Sequence record: SRR22947727_4407
Reading direction: 5' to 3' (one strand)
Length of the DNA: 43,657 bases
Part shown: positions 5,505 through 43,657 of the stretch, piece after piece
How positions within the stretch are numbered: position 1 is the stretch's first letter
Layout of the letters: every line of letters starts with the position of its first letter
Program-made: the position numbers and the translations under genes
Notes under the pieces: generated by a model
The model's input: only the letters and a program-made list of their open reading frames with translations
Database searches by the model: none
Told to the model about the DNA's origin: nothing

Positions 5505-5514
5505 ACCAATTTCA

Positions 5515-5559
5515 ACGAAGCAACAGGGTACGTTCGATGAACCAACCCTATTGATTCGT
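5515..5559. repeat. 45-bp double-palindrome element, copy 1 (intergenic)
   Basis: A CGAAGCAA CAGGG TACGTTCG A TGAACCAA CCCTA TTGATTCG T. Confidence 0.95.
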
Positions 5560-5638
5560 AAGCCCCGAAATTTCACTGTCCCCATTTTTTACGTCTTTTG
5601 CGCTTTTTTGCGGCTAAAAAAATCCAGCATTTCCTGCC

Positions 5639-9140: not shown

Positions 9141-9854
9141 ATGCCCGAACTCAGCCAGTTCCAACGCAATAAAACTGCCGCGCACATCCTTCCGCTGGCG
9201 TTGTTTCTTGGTTTGCAGTTTTTGATTCCACTGATCAAAATCGAGAACCCGGATCTTCCCTGGTGGCGATCTGCCCCGGAGCATTTCATTTACCCACTCC
9301 AAACGATAGTATGCGCTGTCCTGCTCGTCTTCTGGCGACGGCAATTCGATTTTGGAAAGCCAAAACTGATCGGATTCGGCATCGTTTTCGGTATAATCGG
9401 AATCGCAATCTGGCTCGCGCCAACAGCCCTCGGCTGGCAGGATCGTTCAGGGGAAACGGGCGGTTTCGATCCAACCCTATTGGATCATCGAACGAACCCT
9501 ATTGGATCGTGGAGTATTCTCATTCTGAGATTTTTCCGCCTCGTTGTTGTCGTTCCGTTCGTCGAAGAGATTTTCTGGCGGGGATTTTTGATGCGATGGC
9601 TGATCGATTCAAAAAAACGGTGGGACAAAGTCGAGATCGGCACTTTTGGCCAGAAATCTTTCTGGATCACCACGCTGATGATCGGTCTCGCCCACTCGGG
9701 ACCTGACTTCTGGGTCGCGCTTGTTTGGTGAGCCTTGATTGGCTTTGTCACCATTCGCGCCAAAAATCTCTGGGCACCGATCGCCGCTCACGCCGCTGCC
9801 AATCTTGCGCTCGGGATTTACATCATGAAAACCGGGTCGTGGGGGCTGTGGTAA
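9141..9854 (+). pseudogene. CAAX prenyl protease-related (CPBP) membrane protease with an in-frame TGA
   Basis: EEIFWRGFL motif. TGA at 9729-9731 is followed in frame by ALIGFVTIRAKNLWAPIAAHAAANLALGIYIMKTGSWGLW* (conserved HxxxN motif), ending at 9854. Confidence 0.88.
9466..9510. repeat. 45-bp element, copy 2 (inside CPBP gene; cores in direct orientation)
   Basis: T CGATCCAA CCCTA TTGGATCA T CGAACGAA CCCTA TTGGATCG T; encodes FDPTLLDHRTNPIGSW. Confidence 0.93.
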
Positions 9855-9857
9855 ATT

Positions 9858-11036
9858 TCACAAAACCGAACGCACAATTCCCGGTGCAATCGCGCCCAAA
9901 AGCGTCAACAGGGCGATAGCAACAATCACTGAAATCACGAGGACAGCGAGCGCTTCAAAAGCGACCAGCAGCCGAATCGTTGATAAATCAGCCCCGAGAT
10001 TTCGAAGGTTCGAAAACTCACGAATGCGAAGTTTGTTCGACAATAAAAACACCAAAATCGCGATGCCGAAGGTGGCAATTCCGACTGCCACAAGAGCGGC
10101 AATGACGAAATTCCGAATTTGAAAGACGGTTGAGAACAACTCGTCGGTCACCACGGCCGGATCGGCGAGCTGAACCGACTCCGTCGCCGATTCCTGATAG
10201 CGCCCTTTCAAAATTATGCCCGATTTTTGATCTCTCGGGATCACGATCGCCGCAGTAATCGGGAATTCACCAGCGTCTCCATGAAAATGAAAATCACCGA
10301 CATTGTCCGGCGTGATTTCATTGAATTGAACCACCGACGCATTGAGAACGGGGTTGCCCTCCGCATCCATGCTGAGCACCGATTTCTTGTCTTTCGGATC
10401 CACTTCATCATGGCCGTGAGCAAGCCCTTCAATGACCCACGCCGTCTTCACATCGCAGAAAACTGCGCGATCATCGGCATTTCCAGATCGGGTTAGAACA
10501 CCTGTGATCCGCATTTTTAAAGGATAAACCCCAGCCAGATCAAACATCGCTTCAGGTGTGGATATGATCGAATCACCTACGCCAAGACCTAGCTCCGCCG
10601 CGACTTCTGCTCCGAGAACACAATCGCCTAACCTGGCCATAAAATTACCTGAATCCGTTTTCAAATTCCGAAATCGAAAGTAGTCGATCGAAGTCCCCAC
10701 GATCCGAAATCCGTCCGCCGAAAACTTCGCGTAAATCGGGATCGTATTTGCTAAATCCCCGACCTCTTTTGATTTCTGAATCGGGAACGTCGCGATTGCC
10801 GGTTTGGAAAAATAGAGCCCGTTGAAAACCAACTCCAGCGGACTGCCCTGCGCACCCAACATCAGGGGCGTCACTCGTGCCCGCGATCGCAAATGAGATT
10901 CCGCTTCTTTTACAAAAATCGAAATCCCAAACGGCAGAATGATCGAAAGCGATAACGCCGCCACCAACAATACGACTTTGCCCCGCTGTCTTCGGAGGTA
11001 GCGCGTGCCGAGGTGAATGATGCCCGAGGAGTTCAT
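9858..11036 (-). CDS. ABC transporter permease (FtsX/MacB-like)
   Basis: N-terminal TM, large periplasmic domain, C-terminal TMs with RIREFSNLRNLGA; 4-bp overlap with the ATPase gene. Confidence 0.88.
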   Translation of the reverse strand: MNSSGIIHLGTRYLRRQRGKVVLLVAALSLSIILPFGISIFVKEAESHLRSRARVTPLMLGAQGSPLELVFNGLYFSKPAIATFPIQKSKEVGDLANTIPIYAKFSADGFRIVGTSIDYFRFRNLKTDSGNFMARLGDCVLGAEVAAELGLGVGDSIISTPEAMFDLAGVYPLKMRITGVLTRSGNADDRAVFCDVKTAWVIEGLAHGHDEVDPKDKKSVLSMDAEGNPVLNASVVQFNEITPDNVGDFHFHGDAGEFPITAAIVIPRDQKSGIILKGRYQESATESVQLADPAVVTDELFSTVFQIRNFVIAALVAVGIATFGIAILVFLLSNKLRIREFSNLRNLGADLSTIRLLVAFEALAVLVISVIVAIALLTLLGAIAPGIVRSVL

Positions 11037-11686
11037 ATCGCCTCCCCCATGTTAATGACCCGCTCAAAATTCAGCAGCAAATCGTGCTCGTGCGTCACCA
11101 TTAACAACGTGGCCTCACATCGGTTAGCCTCGGATTTCAAAAGATCGACCGCCTTTTGCTGATTTTCAGGATCGAGATTTCCGGTCGGCTCATCGGCTAA
11201 AATGATCTTGGGATTGGTCACCAAGGCCCGGCAAATCGAAACCCGCTGACGTTCGCCCTGCGACATTTCTGCAGGATGACGATCCAGCAAATGATCAATA
11301 CCTGCGGTCGCCGCTAAAGTTTCGCAACGGCCTTGTGCGGCTTCGTCGAGCAGCAATGCAGAGCTCACCCGATAAGGCAGCAGGATATTTTCGCGGGCCG
11401 TCAGGTAATCGAGCAATTCGAATTCCTGAAAAACCAACCCGATGTTTTTGATTCGAAACTGCTGCAATTCGTTTTGCGACATTTCATGAACCGACAGGGT
11501 CTGCACGTTGATCGAACCCTGTTCGATCGGAAGAATCCCCGCAACTAGTCGGAGCAGGGTCGTCTTCCCGCAACCGCTCGGCCCGATCACTGCTGTGTGC
11601 TGGCCCTCTGGAATTTTCAAATCGTCGACCGCCAACGCGAAGGAATCGCGCGGGTAAGAAAATCGGACGTTTTGGAGGTGAATCAT
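11033..11686 (-). CDS. ABC transporter ATP-binding protein (LolD-like)
   Basis: Walker A GPSGCGKT, signature MSQGERQR, Walker B ILADEPTGNLD, H-loop VTH. Confidence 0.96.
   Translation of the reverse strand: MIHLQNVRFSYPRDSFALAVDDLKIPEGQHTAVIGPSGCGKTTLLRLVAGILPIEQGSINVQTLSVHEMSQNELQQFRIKNIGLVFQEFELLDYLTARENILLPYRVSSALLLDEAAQGRCETLAATAGIDHLLDRHPAEMSQGERQRVSICRALVTNPKIILADEPTGNLDPENQQKAVDLLKSEANRCEATLLMVTHEHDLLLNFERVINMGEAI
11486..11530. repeat. 45-bp element, copy 3 (inside ABC ATPase gene)
   Basis: A TGAACCGA CAGGG TCTGCACG T TGATCGAA CCCTG TTCGATCG G with the TTTC left flank seen in other copies; equals codons 53-67, PIEQGSINVQTLSVH. Confidence 0.8.
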
Positions 11687-11768
11687 CGGCCCTGAAATTT
11701 AGACACAATTGACGAGAATTACAGAAATGATTCCTCAGATTTTTTCGGTCGAAGTCCAATTGCCTCCA

Positions 11769-11990
11769 TCAATCTTCGATCGTTGTTGGCAACAACAACG
11801 CATCGCAATTGGTACAGTGGTAGGAACGTGCGCCCATAGACGGCCGCAAATAATCGACCCACTTCTTTTCTTTGAACGAAAAAATTTGAAGCACCGAGCT
11901 ACCCAATTCAAAGAATAGAAAATTCCACGGCTTACGATTCAATTCCGCAACCACTTGTTCCATTTCACTTTCACAATTAGGACATTTCAT
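11769..11990 (-). CDS. Small zinc-ribbon protein
   Basis: MKCPNCESEM...YHCTNC, two CxxC motifs; ATG 11990. Confidence 0.7.
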   Translation of the reverse strand: MKCPNCESEMEQVVAELNRKPWNFLFFELGSSVLQIFSFKEKKWVDYLRPSMGARSYHCTNCDALLLPTTIED

Positions 11991-12000
11991 CTTCAAAATT

Positions 12001-13239
12001 TCACTCAGAATTCTTCTTCGATTGCTGATCAATCCGCTCCTCGTTCACCAGTTTCAGATCACTCAGCTTCCACACATTGCCCACGGGATCGACGGTCAAA
12101 ACCGCGTCGTACCGATTGGTGCGTTCATGGGTGTGCCCCCAATGTGTGACGGTTCCCGCCGTGATCCAATTACAATCCGCGATGAATCCTGCAGTGGCTG
12201 TTTGCTCGGTCGGATCGCATTTTCTCAAATCCACATTGTAAACGCGGACCCGCGCGCCACCTTGGTTTTCCAGTTGAAGCGACGCCTGAATTTCGAGATA
12301 AATTTTCTCTAACAAATTACCTGCCACGCTTTTGTCCAACGCATCGTAGACATCGGATTCACTTCGATATTCGAACGCTTTGTAAACGTTCCGCAACAGG
12401 GCATACGTCACGCTTTCCGCCGCATCAGCGCTCACCAATTCAGGTTTCGAAAACGGATTCGGTAGCGGAATTCGCGGGGCTTTTCGTAGAACAACCGCCG
12501 CAGCGATACAAACAATCAAACCGATGCCCGCCCATGCGGGAGCTCCTTTTTTCGCAAATGCAATGGCAATAACAAAACCAAAACCAATCACCGAAATAAT
12601 GAGCGACCACGGTAAATTCAATGGCTTCCTGCTGTTCGGTGCTGGAACATTTTCGAGCGTTGGCGTCACCAATTCGTTGTCGGAATTCTGCCACATCACG
12701 GTATTTTTCGAAGGCGTCACGATGCGGGCGGACCACTTACCGGGGCTGCCGAATTCGACCGTCGCCTCTTGAATCTCGTCAGTGAAAAAATCCCATTTCA
12801 GCTCCACCGTCTCGGGCGGGGCTGGAATTTTCGCCGCAAAGACCAATCCGATTTTCGCCTCGGCCAACGGAATTTGTTCGCGGTCATCCACGGCGATTCC
12901 AAGCACGGGATCGGGCTTCACAAAGTCGACTCGAGTCAATTCATGGGCCAGCGGCCCTGCATCAGTTGTCACTGAGAACTTCGTTCCTGACAACTGCTTC
13001 ATCTTTTTTTGCAACAGTTCACGAACCACGCCTGCATCCAGGTTTTCACCCTTTGGTAACTCCAATGCGTCAACCACGGCGGCAGCCTCCAGTAAAAATT
13101 CAACCCGCGTTTCAAATGGCTCGACAATGAGAAATCCCCGAATGGGTGAATCCTTTTTTTGCCCAAACGCAGCCCCGGCAGACAACCCAACAAATACGGC
13201 AATCAAAATGGCTGGGACTCTTTTTTCTGAAAATAACAT
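12001..13239 (-). CDS. Hypothetical membrane/exported protein upstream of the ABC transporter genes
   Basis: Signal peptide, two internal TMs and a C-terminal WITAGTVTHWGHTHERTNRY motif; co-oriented with the ABC genes. Confidence 0.8.
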   Translation of the reverse strand: MLFSEKRVPAILIAVFVGLSAGAAFGQKKDSPIRGFLIVEPFETRVEFLLEAAAVVDALELPKGENLDAGVVRELLQKKMKQLSGTKFSVTTDAGPLAHELTRVDFVKPDPVLGIAVDDREQIPLAEAKIGLVFAAKIPAPPETVELKWDFFTDEIQEATVEFGSPGKWSARIVTPSKNTVMWQNSDNELVTPTLENVPAPNSRKPLNLPWSLIISVIGFGFVIAIAFAKKGAPAWAGIGLIVCIAAAVVLRKAPRIPLPNPFSKPELVSADAAESVTYALLRNVYKAFEYRSESDVYDALDKSVAGNLLEKIYLEIQASLQLENQGGARVRVYNVDLRKCDPTEQTATAGFIADCNWITAGTVTHWGHTHERTNRYDAVLTVDPVGNVWKLSDLKLVNEERIDQQSKKNSE

Positions 13240-15132: not shown

Positions 15133-15990
15133 ATGAATCTATTTTTTCAAAATTCTCCCTCCATCCTTTTCTTAATCGGCTGCGCGATCTTCTCAGTTAG
15201 CTGTAGCGAGAACGGTGATTCAGCAGCGATGAAGGAAACGCTTTTGCAAACCGAAGTGGAGCTCCTTTCCAAGCGACTTGAGTCATTAGATCAAGAGATG
15301 GACCTCCAGGTTTTACAGTTGGAGAAAGACCAACGATTGCTCATTCGGGGATCCTCGATGAGCATTCGAGATCTCGGCGAAGCCAACTTAACAGCAAAAA
15401 TTGAGCGCTTTCTTCTTTCGCCAGAAGACTTTTCCACGCTGCTTGAAAACGGAAACGTCAGCGAACTTCACAACGGGATTCAGAAACTCGTTTCGGAAAA
15501 CAAGGCGACTACCAAACCAATTTTCATTGCCAGTCTTTCGACCGTCAGCAGAAAAGGTGAACCTCCAAAATTTACCGTTTCGGATCAGAATAATCTCAAC
15601 GTGCCCATTAATTTTGAACCCGTTTTGAGGAATGAAATAGAAAAGCCGGACTCAAAGCTGGCGCCCAACGAATGGATGAAAGAGGACCTCGGGACGTCCT
15701 TCACTGCTGATTTACTAGCGCGGGAAGACGACCGGTTTTTACTCGACTTGGAATTCAAAGACACCACTCGACTGAAGAACGAGCGCTATCCATTTCCCAA
15801 AATATTCGTCGAAAAAGATCCCGGTCACCTCGATATGCCGGTTTTTCATCAGGGCGAAATTGAGACCACAATCACTGCCGCTGTTGGTGTCGCAGAATTT
15901 ATCGGGACAACGATCATCCCTGGATTCGAAGTCGAAAATCCAGAGCAATTTCAGGCAGTGTTTATCACAATTTTGGGTGACACGAAGTAA
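15133..15990 (+). CDS. Lipoprotein with possible secretin-like domain (3 of 3)
   Basis: Lipobox SVSC; VPINFEP, EDLGTSFTAD, MPVFHQGEIETTIT...G...IG, resembling the secretin C-terminal pattern. Confidence 0.65.
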   Translation: MNLFFQNSPSILFLIGCAIFSVSCSENGDSAAMKETLLQTEVELLSKRLESLDQEMDLQVLQLEKDQRLLIRGSSMSIRDLGEANLTAKIERFLLSPEDFSTLLENGNVSELHNGIQKLVSENKATTKPIFIASLSTVSRKGEPPKFTVSDQNNLNVPINFEPVLRNEIEKPDSKLAPNEWMKEDLGTSFTADLLAREDDRFLLDLEFKDTTRLKNERYPFPKIFVEKDPGHLDMPVFHQGEIETTITAAVGVAEFIGTTIIPGFEVENPEQFQAVFITILGDTK

Positions 15991-16026
15991 CCGGGTTGGC
16001 TCGCCAAACACACCCTGTTCGTTCGA
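15982..16026. repeat. 45-bp element, copy 4 (contains the stop codon of 15133-15990; convergent gene ends)
   Basis: A CGAAGTAA CCGGG TTGGCTCG C CAAACACA CCCTG TTCGTTCG A. Confidence 0.85.
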
Positions 16027-16031
16027 AAAGA

Positions 16032-18656: not shown

Positions 18657-18673
18657 CAGTAAAAAGATATTTC

Positions 18674-18718
18674 ACGATCCAACAGGGTCGATTCATCGAT
18701 CAAATACTATTGGATCGT
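18674..18718. repeat. 45-bp element, copy 5 (intergenic)
   Basis: A CGATCCAA CAGGG TCGATTCA T CGATCAAA TACTA TTGGATCG T. Confidence 0.92.
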
Positions 18719-18786
18719 GCTACAGCATTTTCTGCGGGACAGCATTGCGTCCGTCAATCACAGAGCCGTTCACTTCCGTTAAAAAT

Positions 18787-23807: not shown

Positions 23808-24740
23808 ATGATCGATACCCTCCCAACAAACGGCCCTTTCGATCTCGCCGCGACGCTCAATTCAGGACAAGTTTTTCACTGGAATGAGCATTCCCACAAT
23901 TCTCATTCGGGATTTCTTGGGACAATCGGTGATGCCCCCACCTTTCTCGCTCAAATTGGTGATAATCAAATTTTCACGATCCAACAGGGTCTGTTCGACG
24001 AATCAACTGGGTTGGATCGAAACGCTGAAAATCGCCCTCACGATCCAATAGGGTCCATTCATCGAACGAACCCTGTTGCTTCGTATTTAGCTCTCGATCA
24101 GGCCGATGCAGATATCCGCGCAACTTTCCCTCAGAACGATCCGTTTTTTGATTCCGCACTCAATTATTGTCCGGGACTTCGAATTTTGCATCAACCGATG
24201 TGGGAGTGTCTCGCCACTTTCATCACGTCGTCATTAAAACAAGTGGCTCACATTCGGGACATTTCTCTGACCCTTCGACGCAACCACGGGACGCGGCACG
24301 AATTTTTGGGTGAGGAGCTTTTTGCCTATCCCACTCCTGCAGCACTCGCTGAAGCGGGCGAGGCCAAATTGCGCGCCTGCGCCCTCGGATATCGTGCTAA
24401 ATCGCTCCACTTAACCGCTGCGGCGATTGCCGATGGCTCCATCGATTTGGCGGAACTCGACAGCATCGAAGATCACGCTGAGGCCGTGAAATTTCTCTGC
24501 CAGTTTCACGGCGTTGGCGAGAAAATTGCAAATTGCGCGCTCCTGTTTGGAGCGAATCGATTGGGCGCATTTCCGATCGATGTATGGATCGAACGCGTCC
24601 TCCGGCAGGGATATCGGAAGCGGGTGAAGGGCGCGAAATTACAGCGATGGGCGGAAGGTTATTTCGGCCCCTACGCTGGATACGCACAGCAGTTTTTGTT
24701 TCACTACGGCCGAGTTGGCGGCTTAGGTAAAAACTCATAA
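23808..24740 (+). CDS. 8-oxoguanine DNA glycosylase (OGG1-like, HhH-GPD)
   Basis: TLNSGQVFHW, GLRILHQ, LGYRAK, HhH GVGEKIANC, FPIDVW, YAGYAQQFLF; carries two 45-bp elements in frame. Confidence 0.93.
   Translation: MIDTLPTNGPFDLAATLNSGQVFHWNEHSHNSHSGFLGTIGDAPTFLAQIGDNQIFTIQQGLFDESTGLDRNAENRPHDPIGSIHRTNPVASYLALDQADADIRATFPQNDPFFDSALNYCPGLRILHQPMWECLATFITSSLKQVAHIRDISLTLRRNHGTRHEFLGEELFAYPTPAALAEAGEAKLRACALGYRAKSLHLTAAAIADGSIDLAELDSIEDHAEAVKFLCQFHGVGEKIANCALLFGANRLGAFPIDVWIERVLRQGYRKRVKGAKLQRWAEGYFGPYAGYAQQFLFHYGRVGGLGKNS
23976..24020. repeat. 45-bp element, copy 6 (inside glycosylase gene; cores direct)
   Basis: A CGATCCAA CAGGG TCTGTTCG A CGAATCAA CTGGG TTGGATCG A; equals codons 57-71, TIQQGLFDESTGLDR. 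Confidence 0.93.
24040..24084. repeat. 45-bp element, copy 7 (inside glycosylase gene)
   Basis: A CGATCCAA TAGGG TCCATTCA T CGAACGAA CCCTG TTGCTTCG T; 19 bp after copy 6. Confidence 0.95.
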
Positions 24741-25500: not shown

Positions 25501-25584
25501 TGCTCACGAGAGGACTCGAACCTCCACGGGTATAACCCCACTAGAACCTGAATCTAGCGCGTCTACCAATTCCGCCACGTGAGC
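25501..25584 (-). tRNA. tRNA-Leu(CAG)
   Basis: Reverse complement GCTCACGTGGCGGAATTGGTAGACGCG-CTAGA-TTCAGGT-TCTAG-...GGAGGTTCGAGTCCTCT-CGTGAGCA; long variable arm; CCA not encoded. Confidence 0.97.
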
Positions 25585-27450: not shown

Positions 27451-27586
27451 GAGGGGAACGGGTGTCCAAAAAATTGAGGTGAGTTTCCCTCAGTCCTGCG
27501 CAAAGACAAAGGAAACGTGAAGCATAGACGAAAACTTCACGGGTCTATTGCAGTGATTTCGCATCTTCTGCTACGGCGTAAATTTT

Positions 27587-27631
27587 TCGAAACCACAGGG
27601 TCTGTTCGACAAATCAACCCTGTTCGTTCGT
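27587..27631. repeat. 45-bp element, copy 8 (just downstream of the dnaB stop)
   Basis: T CGAAACCA CAGGG TCTGTTCG A CAAATCAA CCCTG TTCGTTCG T, then GAAAA. Confidence 0.93.
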
Positions 27632-27644
27632 GAAAACTGTTTCG

Positions 27645-30870: not shown

Positions 30871-30944
30871 CGGAATGTGGCGCAGTTTGGTAGCGCATCA
30901 CACTGGGGGTGTGGGGGTCGCAGGTTCAAATCCTGTCATTCCGA
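30871..30944 (+). tRNA. tRNA-Pro(GGG)
   Basis: CGGAATG-TGGCGCAGTTTGGTAGCGCA-TCACA-CTGGGGG-TGTGG-GGGTC-GCAGGTTCAAATCCTGT-CATTCCG-A. Confidence 0.97.
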
Positions 30945-30955
30945 CTGTTGACTAT

Positions 30956-31420
30956 TCAAACCGCACGGACAAACACACTCGGACCGCGTGTGTCGACCAC
31001 TTCGATCGACGTTCCTTTCGCAATCACGCCGGATTCCGACATCACATCGAGTTTTTCGCCGCCGATTTTTGCGTGTCCCGATGGTCTCAAATCTGTAAGC
31101 GCCTCTCCGGTTTGACCAACGAGTGTCTGACGCGCTTTTAATTCGTCGTCGCTACCCACAGCTGCTTCCAATACCAACTTGCGAGTGAAGGGCAGTCGGT
31201 GAAAAAATTTCATCCAGATCCACGTCATTGTCCCCGCAAACGCCAGCATGATCACCAGCGCGACGATTCCCCACATCAATCCAAATTCAGCGAACGAGAG
31301 CACCACCGCAGCAACCATGCAGATCGCGCCTGCAATACCGAGAATTCCGCCCGGCAACACCAATTCGAAGAGAAAGGCCAGGATGCCGATGACGGCGAGA
31401 ACTACAATCGTGGTTACCAT
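30956..31420 (-). CDS. NfeD-like membrane protein (C-terminal OB fold)
   Basis: ELVLPGGILG TMs and LVGQTGEALTDLRPSG; ATG 31420. Confidence 0.9.
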   Translation of the reverse strand: MVTTIVVLAVIGILAFLFELVLPGGILGIAGAICMVAAVVLSFAEFGLMWGIVALVIMLAFAGTMTWIWMKFFHRLPFTRKLVLEAAVGSDDELKARQTLVGQTGEALTDLRPSGHAKIGGEKLDVMSESGVIAKGTSIEVVDTRGPSVFVRAV

Positions 31421-31426
31421 GCTTCT

Positions 31427-31471
31427 ACGAATCAACAGGGTCTGATCGACAAATCAACCCTATTTGATCGT
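31427..31471. repeat. 45-bp element, copy 9 (divergent intergenic region)
   Basis: A CGAATCAA CAGGG TCTGATCG A CAAATCAA CCCTA TTTGATCG T, then GAAA. Confidence 0.93.
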
Positions 31472-31553
31472 GAAAGACCTGAACTTGAAGACGCCAATTC
31501 GACTGCCTTTTTCAACTTCTCGACGTTTGGTTTTCACCCTAAAATCCAAAGAG

Positions 31554-38938: not shown

Positions 38939-39025
38939 TGGAATTAGGACGAATCAATACCGTGGAAATTAGATGGTTGTTTAATGGGAATCACTCAGGA
39001 TAGAATTACACCACGATCACTGTTC

Positions 39026-39070
39026 ACGAACCAACCCTGTCCATTCATCGAACGCACCCTGTTCGTTCGT
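39026..39070. repeat. 45-bp element, copy 10 (divergent intergenic region; cores direct)
   Basis: A CGAACCAA CCCTG TCCATTCA T CGAACGCA CCCTG TTCGTTCG T, then GAAAA. Confidence 0.92.
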
Positions 39071-39283
39071 GAAAACGAGATCGCGACGGTTCGACGTGAG
39101 TTTTCTAGGAAAAATAATTTTCGGGCTCTGGAGCACCTCAAATTCGGAGCTCTTTCCTACCGAACGGGTTTAAGCGCAACCCCAGACTCAGTTCCAGAGC
39201 TACCGCTATCAGAATAATCAACGCTGTGAGCATGGGGAAAGCGCGCTCGTTTAGAAAAAATTTAATTAAAGTGATTATATAGC

Positions 39284-43538: not shown

Positions 43539-43556
43539 TCACCAGAAGCCAATTTT

Positions 43557-43601
43557 ACGAAGCAATAGGGTAGGTTCAACGAATCATCCCTGTCTGTTCG
43601 A
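43557..43601. repeat. 45-bp element, copy 11
   Basis: A CGAAGCAA TAGGG TAGGTTCA A CGAATCAT CCCTG TCTGTTCG A. Confidence 0.92.
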
Positions 43602-43610
43602 AAACGGATT

Positions 43611-43655
43611 TCGATCCAATAGGGTACGTTCGATGAACCTACCCTGTTGCTTCGT
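43611..43655. repeat. 45-bp element, copy 12 (9 bp after copy 11)
   Basis: T CGATCCAA TAGGG TACGTTCG A TGAACCTA CCCTG TTGCTTCG T. Confidence 0.95.
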
Positions 43656-43657
43656 GA

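Follow-up and report, generated by a model that had tools for sequence, protein, structure and literature searches.

The repeat-bearing ABC transporter gene and its neighbours

The window analysed here, a single stretch of 43,657 nt read on one strand, contains an ABC transporter ATPase gene whose coding sequence also carries a copy of a dispersed palindromic repeat. The gene, its neighbour and the parts of the repeat copy are as follows.

11033..11686, minus strand: ABC transporter ATPase gene, 217 aa (Pfam PF00005, E=2.1e-33)
9858..11036, minus strand: MacB/FtsX-type permease gene (MacB_PCD, E=2e-7; FtsX, E=6e-4)
11482..11535, minus strand: repeat copy in the ATPase gene, codons 52-69 (LPIEQGSINVQTLSVHEM), palindromic and matching the family model on both strands
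11516..11533, minus strand: left arm, codons 52-57, CTT CCG ATC GAA CAG GGT in coding orientation
11501..11515, minus strand: centre, TCG ATC AAC GTG CAG, encoding S-I-N-V-Q, the least repeat-like part
11482..11500, minus strand: right arm, codons 63-69, ACC CTG TCG GTT CAT GAA A in coding orientation
25501-25584 (minus strand) and 30871-30944 (plus strand): two tRNA genes, at Rfam gathering thresholds

The ATPase scores 116.2 bits against PF00005, compared to a curated cut-off of 25, and belongs to that family. All of the Walker A, Q-loop, signature, Walker B and H-loop motifs are present in the 217 residues, and the residues of Walker A, the Q-loop, the signature and Walker B form invariant columns in an alignment of 23 database homologues. 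Orthologues were found in all 41 relatives searched. The permease gene overlaps the ATPase gene by 4 nt, and its product is probably the ATPase's partner. A small ORF with two CxxC pairs (MKCPNCE...CTNCD) occupies 11769-12032 (minus strand) in the 314-nt gap upstream of the ATPase gene. Elsewhere in the window, the ORF 30956..31435 adjoins one of the tRNA genes, overlaps a repeat copy and is probably spurious.

A degenerate copy of the repeat lies within the coding sequence

A repeat search of the window identified 11487-11530 as a member of a 12-copy family of 44-nt repeats. On the ATPase gene, codons 53-67 (PIEQGSINVQTLSVH) map to 11530..11486, between Walker A and the Q-loop, where the sequence-only reading had placed a full copy of the element. 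We constructed a sequence-only covariance model (R1) from 10 full window copies, leaving the ABC copy out, and searched the window with it. At the ABC site, R1 scores 26.1 bits on the minus strand (11484-11530) and 25.1 bits on the plus strand (11482-11530), with E=2.5e-7 for the window, a rough value since the model's calibration was shortened. The 11 other window loci score 44.9-55.8 bits, including 47.5 bits for 43609-43657, which was outside the training set; the strongest unrelated match in the window reaches 6.9 bits. The ABC copy aligns to the other family copies without gaps and keeps the canonical spacing between the arms.

A weight matrix made from 36 copies outside the window gave the ABC site 39.3 bits, with the best position starting at CDS nt 152. 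The same matrix gave the window copies 49-68 bits and a background maximum of 24.9 over 433 kb. We then compared the observed score with three codon-aware controls. Permuting synonymous codons within the ATPase gene never reached 39.3 bits (0 of 2000; mean -0.1, maximum 29.5), shuffling the gene's codon order never reached it either (0 of 2000; mean -32.5, maximum -0.8), and the same held when the 20-residue peptide was re-coded with the genome's codon usage (0 of 10,000; mean -3.0, maximum 33.4). The matrix score is thus significant against codon-shuffled genes, the comparison that the sequence-only reading had called for, and from these controls it follows that both the peptide and the choice of codons are shaped towards the repeat.

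The copy was confirmed by the repeat search, R1 and the weight matrix, with two refinements. It is a genuine family copy, yet degenerate, and it reaches slightly past codons 53-67, to about 11482-11535 (codons 52-69). Matches are found at 21 of the 27 most conserved family positions. The right arm agrees with the consensus at 17 of 19 letters, with one or two differences in each of three species, and the central 15 nt agree at about 6 of 15. This centre encodes the I-x-V strand typical of ABC ATPases, and orthologues keep G-x-I-x-V at the same place. The stretch in the ATPase gene is a real, old copy of the repeat family.

The copy is shared by the genus and adds no residues

We found the ABC copy at the same codons in three genomes of one Verrucomicrobiales genus, here called G001, G002 and G003 (26.1, 28.4 and 31.1 bits, respectively), and in a metagenome strain that is 93.6% identical. 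At the 27 orthologue loci of other genera, no match was found; there, the segment reads, for example, VPSSGEINVADQKLT, and is written in unrelated DNA. The copy therefore is shared by the genus and probably dates to its common ancestor. A metagenome scan for the ABC gene returned a 100% relative, a 96% relative and one distant ABC gene only.

The protein's length is unaffected by the copy. Of the 30 orthologue loci fetched, 20 have a top tblastn alignment free of gaps, including those of G002 (83% identical) and G003 (76%); for the remaining 10, gap positions were not located. The 23 database homologues align with no internal gap between the N-terminus and the end of the Q-loop, and residues 17-118 align ungapped to the solved PsdA ATPase (chain 9ugg_A). 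In the AlphaFold model of the ATPase (mean pLDDT 92.7), residues 56-61 form a strand in an ordered fold, and the 10-residue blocks over the repeat site have pLDDT values of 94 and 90. The sequence-only reading had proposed a normal distance from Walker A to the Q-loop and no indel of 15 aa, and the orthologues, the homologues and PsdA all bear this out. Accordingly, the ABC copy is present without a change in length.

These data leave next to no credence for either a chance resemblance or a plain in-frame insertion that lengthens the protein. The family does insert in frame in other genes, which would favour the latter, but the ungapped alignments are contrary to it. Nothing favours chance, as 0 of 14,000 codon-aware controls reach the observed score and the background maximum is far lower.

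The repeat arms are constrained at the DNA level

We compared codon identity inside and outside the copy in the three species. Among codons whose amino acid is conserved, 12 of 15 are identical in all three species within codons 51-69, compared to 33 of 138 outside (Fisher p=2.8e-5); such Fisher p-values are indicative only, because the species are related and the region was preselected by the finding, which overstates independence. Codon bias predicts 2.4-3.8 identical codons rather than the 12 observed. Over the whole ATPase gene, identity at third codon positions among the three species is only 46-55%. The longest run that is identical in all three is 23 nt (11511-11533, CDS nt 154-176) and holds the left arm, while the next longest is 11 nt. 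In the 93.6% strain, none of the 42 differences in 654 nt falls in CDS nt 142-218. Strain contigs from public runs have 5 differences in 1201 nt, all outside the repeat, a number too small for a test of constraint.

The arms are under synonymous-site constraint beyond the protein code. Because their DNA has stayed nearly constant to a degree that the protein does not require, the same 54 bases serve as codons and as a repeat site. The sequence-only reading had called this dual-coding DNA, and the synonymous excess, the failure of every re-coding and the lack of strain differences within the site all agree with that description.

The synonymous conservation could instead belong to a different feature that overlaps the site, for example an ORF on the opposite strand, a small RNA, a structure in the mRNA or a promoter inside the gene, whose likeness to the repeat would then be incidental. 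A 71-aa antisense ORF (11333..11548, plus strand) does overlap the site, and a contig from an RNA library covers 11352-11531. However, the ends of that contig are uninformative because repeats break assemblies, and additional short pieces from public runs on 11488-11529 are other repeat copies. There is no Rfam match at the site, its folding is no better than that of shuffled sequences in G001 and G003, and a scan of 11000-12100 found no promoter- or terminator-like site on the copy, its one promoter-like hit being upstream (11970-11999). The conserved run coincides exactly with the repeat arms. We consider this explanation very improbable.

Structure, number and range of the repeat family

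The family consensus is roughly TTTCACGA-ACCAACAGGGT-nnGTTCGAYGAAYCA-ACCCTGTTGG-TTCGTGAAA, with inverted ends (TTTCACGA...TCGTGAAA). The repeat is a palindrome of about 53 nt made of two units of about 22 nt, and the consensus unit, CGAAnCAA-YAGGG-TTGnTTCG, is self-complementary over about 8 nt per side. Eight intergenic copies in the window score 44.9-54.2 bits.

5511-5561: intergenic copy
15981-16030: intergenic copy
18671-18720: intergenic copy
27583-27634: intergenic copy
31423-31474: intergenic copy
39023-39074: intergenic copy
43553-43603: intergenic copy
43609-43657: intergenic copy

We took a census in 444 kb, consisting of the window and 400 kb of G001, a genome of about 6 Mb in 230 contigs that shares 100% of the window's sampled words. 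Using nhmmer, 87 sites were found in 71 merged loci, about one per 5 kb, with scores that run continuously from 18 to 57 bits. About 16 of the 71 loci are close pairs of sites. Roughly 90% of copies are intergenic, and about 7-9 sites lie within long ORFs. In its high copy number, dispersal, mainly intergenic location and frequent dimers, the family agrees with REP families.

The family occurs in five of the 41 relatives. It is strong in the three genus genomes, where all scored candidates match; a weaker relative of it is present in G020 (57 of 142 scored) and in G009 (4 of 142), and it was not found in the 36 other relatives searched. The exact core pattern is present in only 2 MAGs, both labelled Verrucomicrobiales bacterium, of a 185,579-species collection from which the window's own genome was possibly left out. 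The public runs that contain the stretch are marine or aquatic metagenomes. Near the ABC locus, G003 has a copy of its own, so copies differ between species; as this copy is intergenic, it is silent on how copies enter genes.

We examined whether the palindrome acts through a folded hairpin. Across 46 copies, the arms show no covariation, either as one long hairpin (73.8% of cells paired, compared to 76.1% when shuffled) or as two hairpins (76.1% compared to 77.1%), and z-scores between -0.7 and -5.6 show a weak, inconsistent tendency to fold. Neither the covariation analysis nor the folding supports selection for a hairpin. At gathering thresholds, Rfam has no match at any repeat copy in the window. 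A 10-bp periodicity of the conserved blocks was also considered and dropped, as the spacing of the high-information blocks is irregular. Among the loci compared, no pair of filled and empty sites was close enough to read a target-site duplication, which together with the inverted ends would mark a MITE.

Around the six Y1-transposase loci fetched from G001-G003, R1 finds no copy in the 1.5 kb to either side. PF01797 matches eight places in these genomes, six of them in G002. The only match in G001 (contig C171, 2452-2754) contains an in-frame TAA.

Other genes carry copies that add variable numbers of residues

Within the window, three further copies lie in two other ORFs.

9464..9513, plus strand: copy in an Rce1-like (CAAX protease family) ORF, 9141..9731 (GFDPTLLDHRTNPIGSW), 48.1 bits
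23972-24022 and 24038-24085, plus strand: two near-consensus copies, in frame in an 8-oxoguanine glycosylase (OGG) gene, 23808..24740, 55.8 and 54.1 bits

The OGG copies lengthen their protein. The distance from SGQxFHW to CPGLR is 102 aa in the window and G001, 100 in G003 and 80 in G002, compared to 72-78 aa in nine of ten measured orthologues from outside the genus; the tenth has 88, and an eleventh could not be measured. G003 keeps both OGG copies in altered form, while in G002 a collapsed remnant of seven residues is seen (CGATCCAAC-CTCG-GTTGGAT).

A 1097-aa HEAT-repeat protein has a 17-aa insert with respect to G005 and G009, which it has in common with G020, a member of another genus. 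Identical codons are more frequent in this copy than in the rest of the gene (6 of 8 compared to 155 of 617, p=0.005; with G020 included, 4 of 6 compared to 40 of 438, p=0.001). Its scores are 34.7 bits in G001 (contig C97, 27049-27095), 22.9 in G002, 46.7 in G003 and 30.5 in G020. That such an old copy is near the consensus in G003 alone suggests its refreshment by conversion or re-insertion. Because the OGG and HEAT-repeat gene copies add residues, as classic in-frame palindromic insertions do and the ABC copy does not, the family does insert. The ABC copy had been put forward as the strongest argument against an insertion element; for the family this does not hold, since the two OGG copies and the HEAT copy add residues and copies differ between species.

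Other copies add less. In the dihydroorotate dehydrogenase PyrD (G001, contig C97 around 132064; locus 11193-12212, minus strand), a partial copy fills a loop that is exactly as long as the one in repeat-free G005. With PyrD there are two length-neutral cases, although the length of this loop is variable. The Rce1-like copy, which scores 37.7 and 24.3 bits in G002 and G003, codes for 17 aa and adds only 4 with respect to G005. Its left arm falls on GFDP codons, which repeat-free G005 already has, an overlap that hints at microhomology-guided integration or at selection of compatible sites. Copies in DnaE and in an L,D-transpeptidase-like protein are located in variable linkers. Several intragenic copies cover more sequence than they contribute. 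Four further comparisons of intragenic copies gave no significant synonymous excess (Rce1-like, p=0.11 and 0.47; PyrD, p=0.09; OGG, p=0.07).

Origin of the copy in the ABC gene

The explanation that we judge to be probable is that a genus-specific REP-like repeat was acquired by replacing about 17 codons of the ABC gene and that its arms were then constrained as DNA. In the ancestor of the genus, a copy would have entered the frame in place of about 17 codons, adding none, either by in-frame acquisition with the loss of an equal length of native sequence or by a patch-like recombination. The centre, which encodes the S-I-N-V strand, would have been retuned after acquisition or retained from the native gene. 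The arms would then be held constant by the same force that presumably keeps the whole family near its consensus. The most likely candidate for this force is a putative trans-acting protein that recognizes the double-stranded site, possibly together with occasional conversion. A reading of double-stranded DNA, rather than of a hairpin, is favoured because the arms do not covary and folding is weak.

The sequence-only reading had proposed that the site arose by substitution or by sequence replacement. The length-neutral character of the site agrees with both; as to the choice between stepwise and block change, block replacement is favoured because the match is full-length, its spacing is canonical and the family moves as blocks. 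The length of the PyrD loop, equal to that of G005, the addition of only 4 of 17 aa in the Rce1-like protein and the remnant in the G002 OGG gene make replacement plausible. No intermediate, neither a longer protein nor a plain pre-repeat sequence of known DNA, was recovered among the orthologues and homologues compared, and the route of replacement is therefore not observed.

The alternative is that the site was written stepwise, by motif-favoured point substitutions in native codons, under selection for a binding site or an uptake-like drive, and without foreign DNA. Several observations agree with this mechanism. The protein's length is unchanged, and the conserved P, G, I and V are at their usual ABC positions between repeat-derived residues. 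In G002, a His-to-Arg change at codon 67 shifts the DNA towards the consensus, and the left arm of the Rce1-like copy lies on GFDP codons found in a repeat-free genus. Uptake sequences provide a precedent, at least in the part of that work considered here, for the accumulation of a motif in coding DNA by substitution (PMC2817400).

However, the resemblance covers about 53 nt, keeps the canonical spacing and includes about 40 matching letters. At the left arm, the DNA of the nearest outgroup agrees in only about 4 of 15 letters, and stepwise writing would therefore need about 25 directed changes. In addition, the family enters other genes as blocks, about 90% of its copies are intergenic, unlike motifs that spread by substitution, and the left two-thirds of the centre also resemble a common family variant. 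On balance, we consider stepwise writing unlikely.

A database protein from a 942-nt contig, P0004, bears on both mechanisms. It is 74% identical and of equal length, and it reads PLGEGKITVGSVSVHEQ at the segment, without the repeat peptide. It shares P53, G57, I59, V61 and S-V-H-E with the repeat-bearing proteins, an interleaving of shared residues at equal length that speaks for stepwise change, and it differs from its nearest relative at 10 of 17 segment positions. Judged from the protein alignment, these differences look like substitutional turnover and not like block replacement, and P0004 shows that the repeat and non-repeat states interconvert at constant length. When the segment was left out of the tree, P0004 joined G003 (support 82/81) within a five-member clade (96/92). 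If this position is correct, P0004 lost the repeat through substitution; should it instead be an outgroup, it displays the pre-repeat state. The G-S-I-N-V of the centre is within the natural variation of orthologues (G005 has G-E-I-N-V), which fits a native centre with written arms equally well.

The arms could also stay near the consensus with no selection at all, if about 1000 other copies in the genome convert them in concerted evolution and the protein tolerates the passenger DNA. The wide range of scores among orthologous intragenic copies (22.9-46.7 bits for HEAT) looks as if copies were refreshed, and the right-arm variant of G002, GTCTGTTCG, is also present in other copies. The arms, at only 15-19 nt, are nevertheless short for homologous conversion. 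The left arm is identical in four taxa with no switching between sub-variants, and the centre, although it departs from the consensus, is stable as well. We regard conversion without selection as quite unlikely.

Beyond the replacement that we judge to be probable, we can only tentatively propose a more general mechanism, which is doubtful in its entirety: the repeat would be a selected double-stranded DNA site with a putative genus-specific reader, and the family would overwrite host sequence by templated, length-neutral patches in addition to inserting. If both the selected site and the overwriting are true, a non-coding signal would sit in the codons of essential genes, namely those for the ABC ATPase, PyrD and the Rce1-like protease, and would have stayed there for the lifetime of the genus.

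Few features of bacterial genomes are as abundant and as poorly understood as REP-type repeats, and whether individual copies are functional or selfish has long been debated. A copy inside a well-understood protein brings a built-in control, namely the synonymous sites of the same gene. Here, repeat letters are conserved for their own sake across species in which about half of the silent sites have changed, and the question becomes testable. The ABC copy also shows that a structured region of an enzyme can accommodate a 50-nt repeat while the enzyme keeps its length. Annotation pipelines and models of repeat spread that assume insertion would miss such length-neutral copies.

Relation to known repeats and motifs

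REP super-families with GTAG or CGTC tags include intragenic, translated copies, some of them in DNA repair and replication genes and in the verrucomicrobium Opitutus terrae (Di Nocera et al. 2013, PMC3733652). The present family shares with them, as they are described in the portions of that paper considered here, the small palindromic units, in which about 8 bp of potential stem enclose a loop of about 5 nt, the hundreds to thousands of mostly intergenic copies that are often inverted dimers, and a minority of translated copies in ORFs, here OGG and DnaE. In the same portions, the CGTC-type REPs likewise have no dedicated transposase. Unlike those super-families, the present repeat has no conserved tag: GTAG and CGTC are absent from the consensus and its invariant columns, and CGTC arises only with a C at one variable central position. 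The intragenic REPs in print there are inserts of 20-30 residues in linkers or loops (PMC3733652). By contrast with these, as they are described in that paper's text rather than in its case table, the ABC copy adds no residues, lies in an ordered strand region and is synonymously constrained.

The Rickettsia palindromic elements (RPE) are the classic in-frame palindromic insertions (PMC10969869). According to the part of that source considered here, they resemble the present repeat in being palindromic, in frame in unrelated housekeeping genes and compatible with protein function. They are Rickettsia-specific, about 100-150 bp long and peptide-adding, whereas the present repeat is about 53 nt long, occurs in Verrucomicrobiales and leaves the length of the ABC protein unchanged.

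DNA uptake sequences (USS/DUS) occupy codons without a change in length, and a third to two thirds of their copies lie in ORFs (Findlay & Redfield 2009, PMC2817400). In the sections of that paper considered here, they are likewise abundant motifs that shape the encoded peptide and sit at poorly conserved residues. They depend on competence, whereas the present repeat, at about 53 nt and about 90% intergenic, shows block insertions in some genes; it is not a short motif spread by substitution in ORFs, as an uptake-type sequence would be.

Three points of background complete the comparison. The cores of uptake sequences are about 9-12 nt. HIP1, the highly iterated palindrome of cyanobacteria, is 8 bp long and has been reported to spread in coding DNA by nucleotide substitution; the present motif is palindromic too, but six times longer and with a two-unit architecture. 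REPIN/RAYT systems consist of inverted REP doublets at high copy number, and the present family differs from them in having no repeat within 1.5 kb of the six Y1-transposase loci and no covariation between its arms. Searches of open-access text found no report of the present family, nor of a REP-type copy that lies in a structured protein core, is length-neutral and is synonymously constrained. Intragenic insertions of the REP type are already in print, and the length-neutral, DNA-constrained case appears to be a new form of them.

Variant copies and spacing

A minority of copies have the 5-nt core of the right unit flipped (CCCTG to CAGGG) with its flanks kept, so that the two units form a direct rather than an inverted repeat. 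This variant is found at 9467-9510, 23977-24020 and 39027-39070 and in several copies of the sample. Solo half-units also exist, for example in G001 at C97:112434 and C163:96910. Across the 444 kb, the loci are spaced more evenly than random placement outside ORFs predicts (CV 0.56, compared to 0.78-0.85 in two null models; 2 of 3000 and 0 of 3000 trials), and no two loci are less than 1.4 kb apart except for tandem doublets. The even spacing may reflect one copy per transcription unit.
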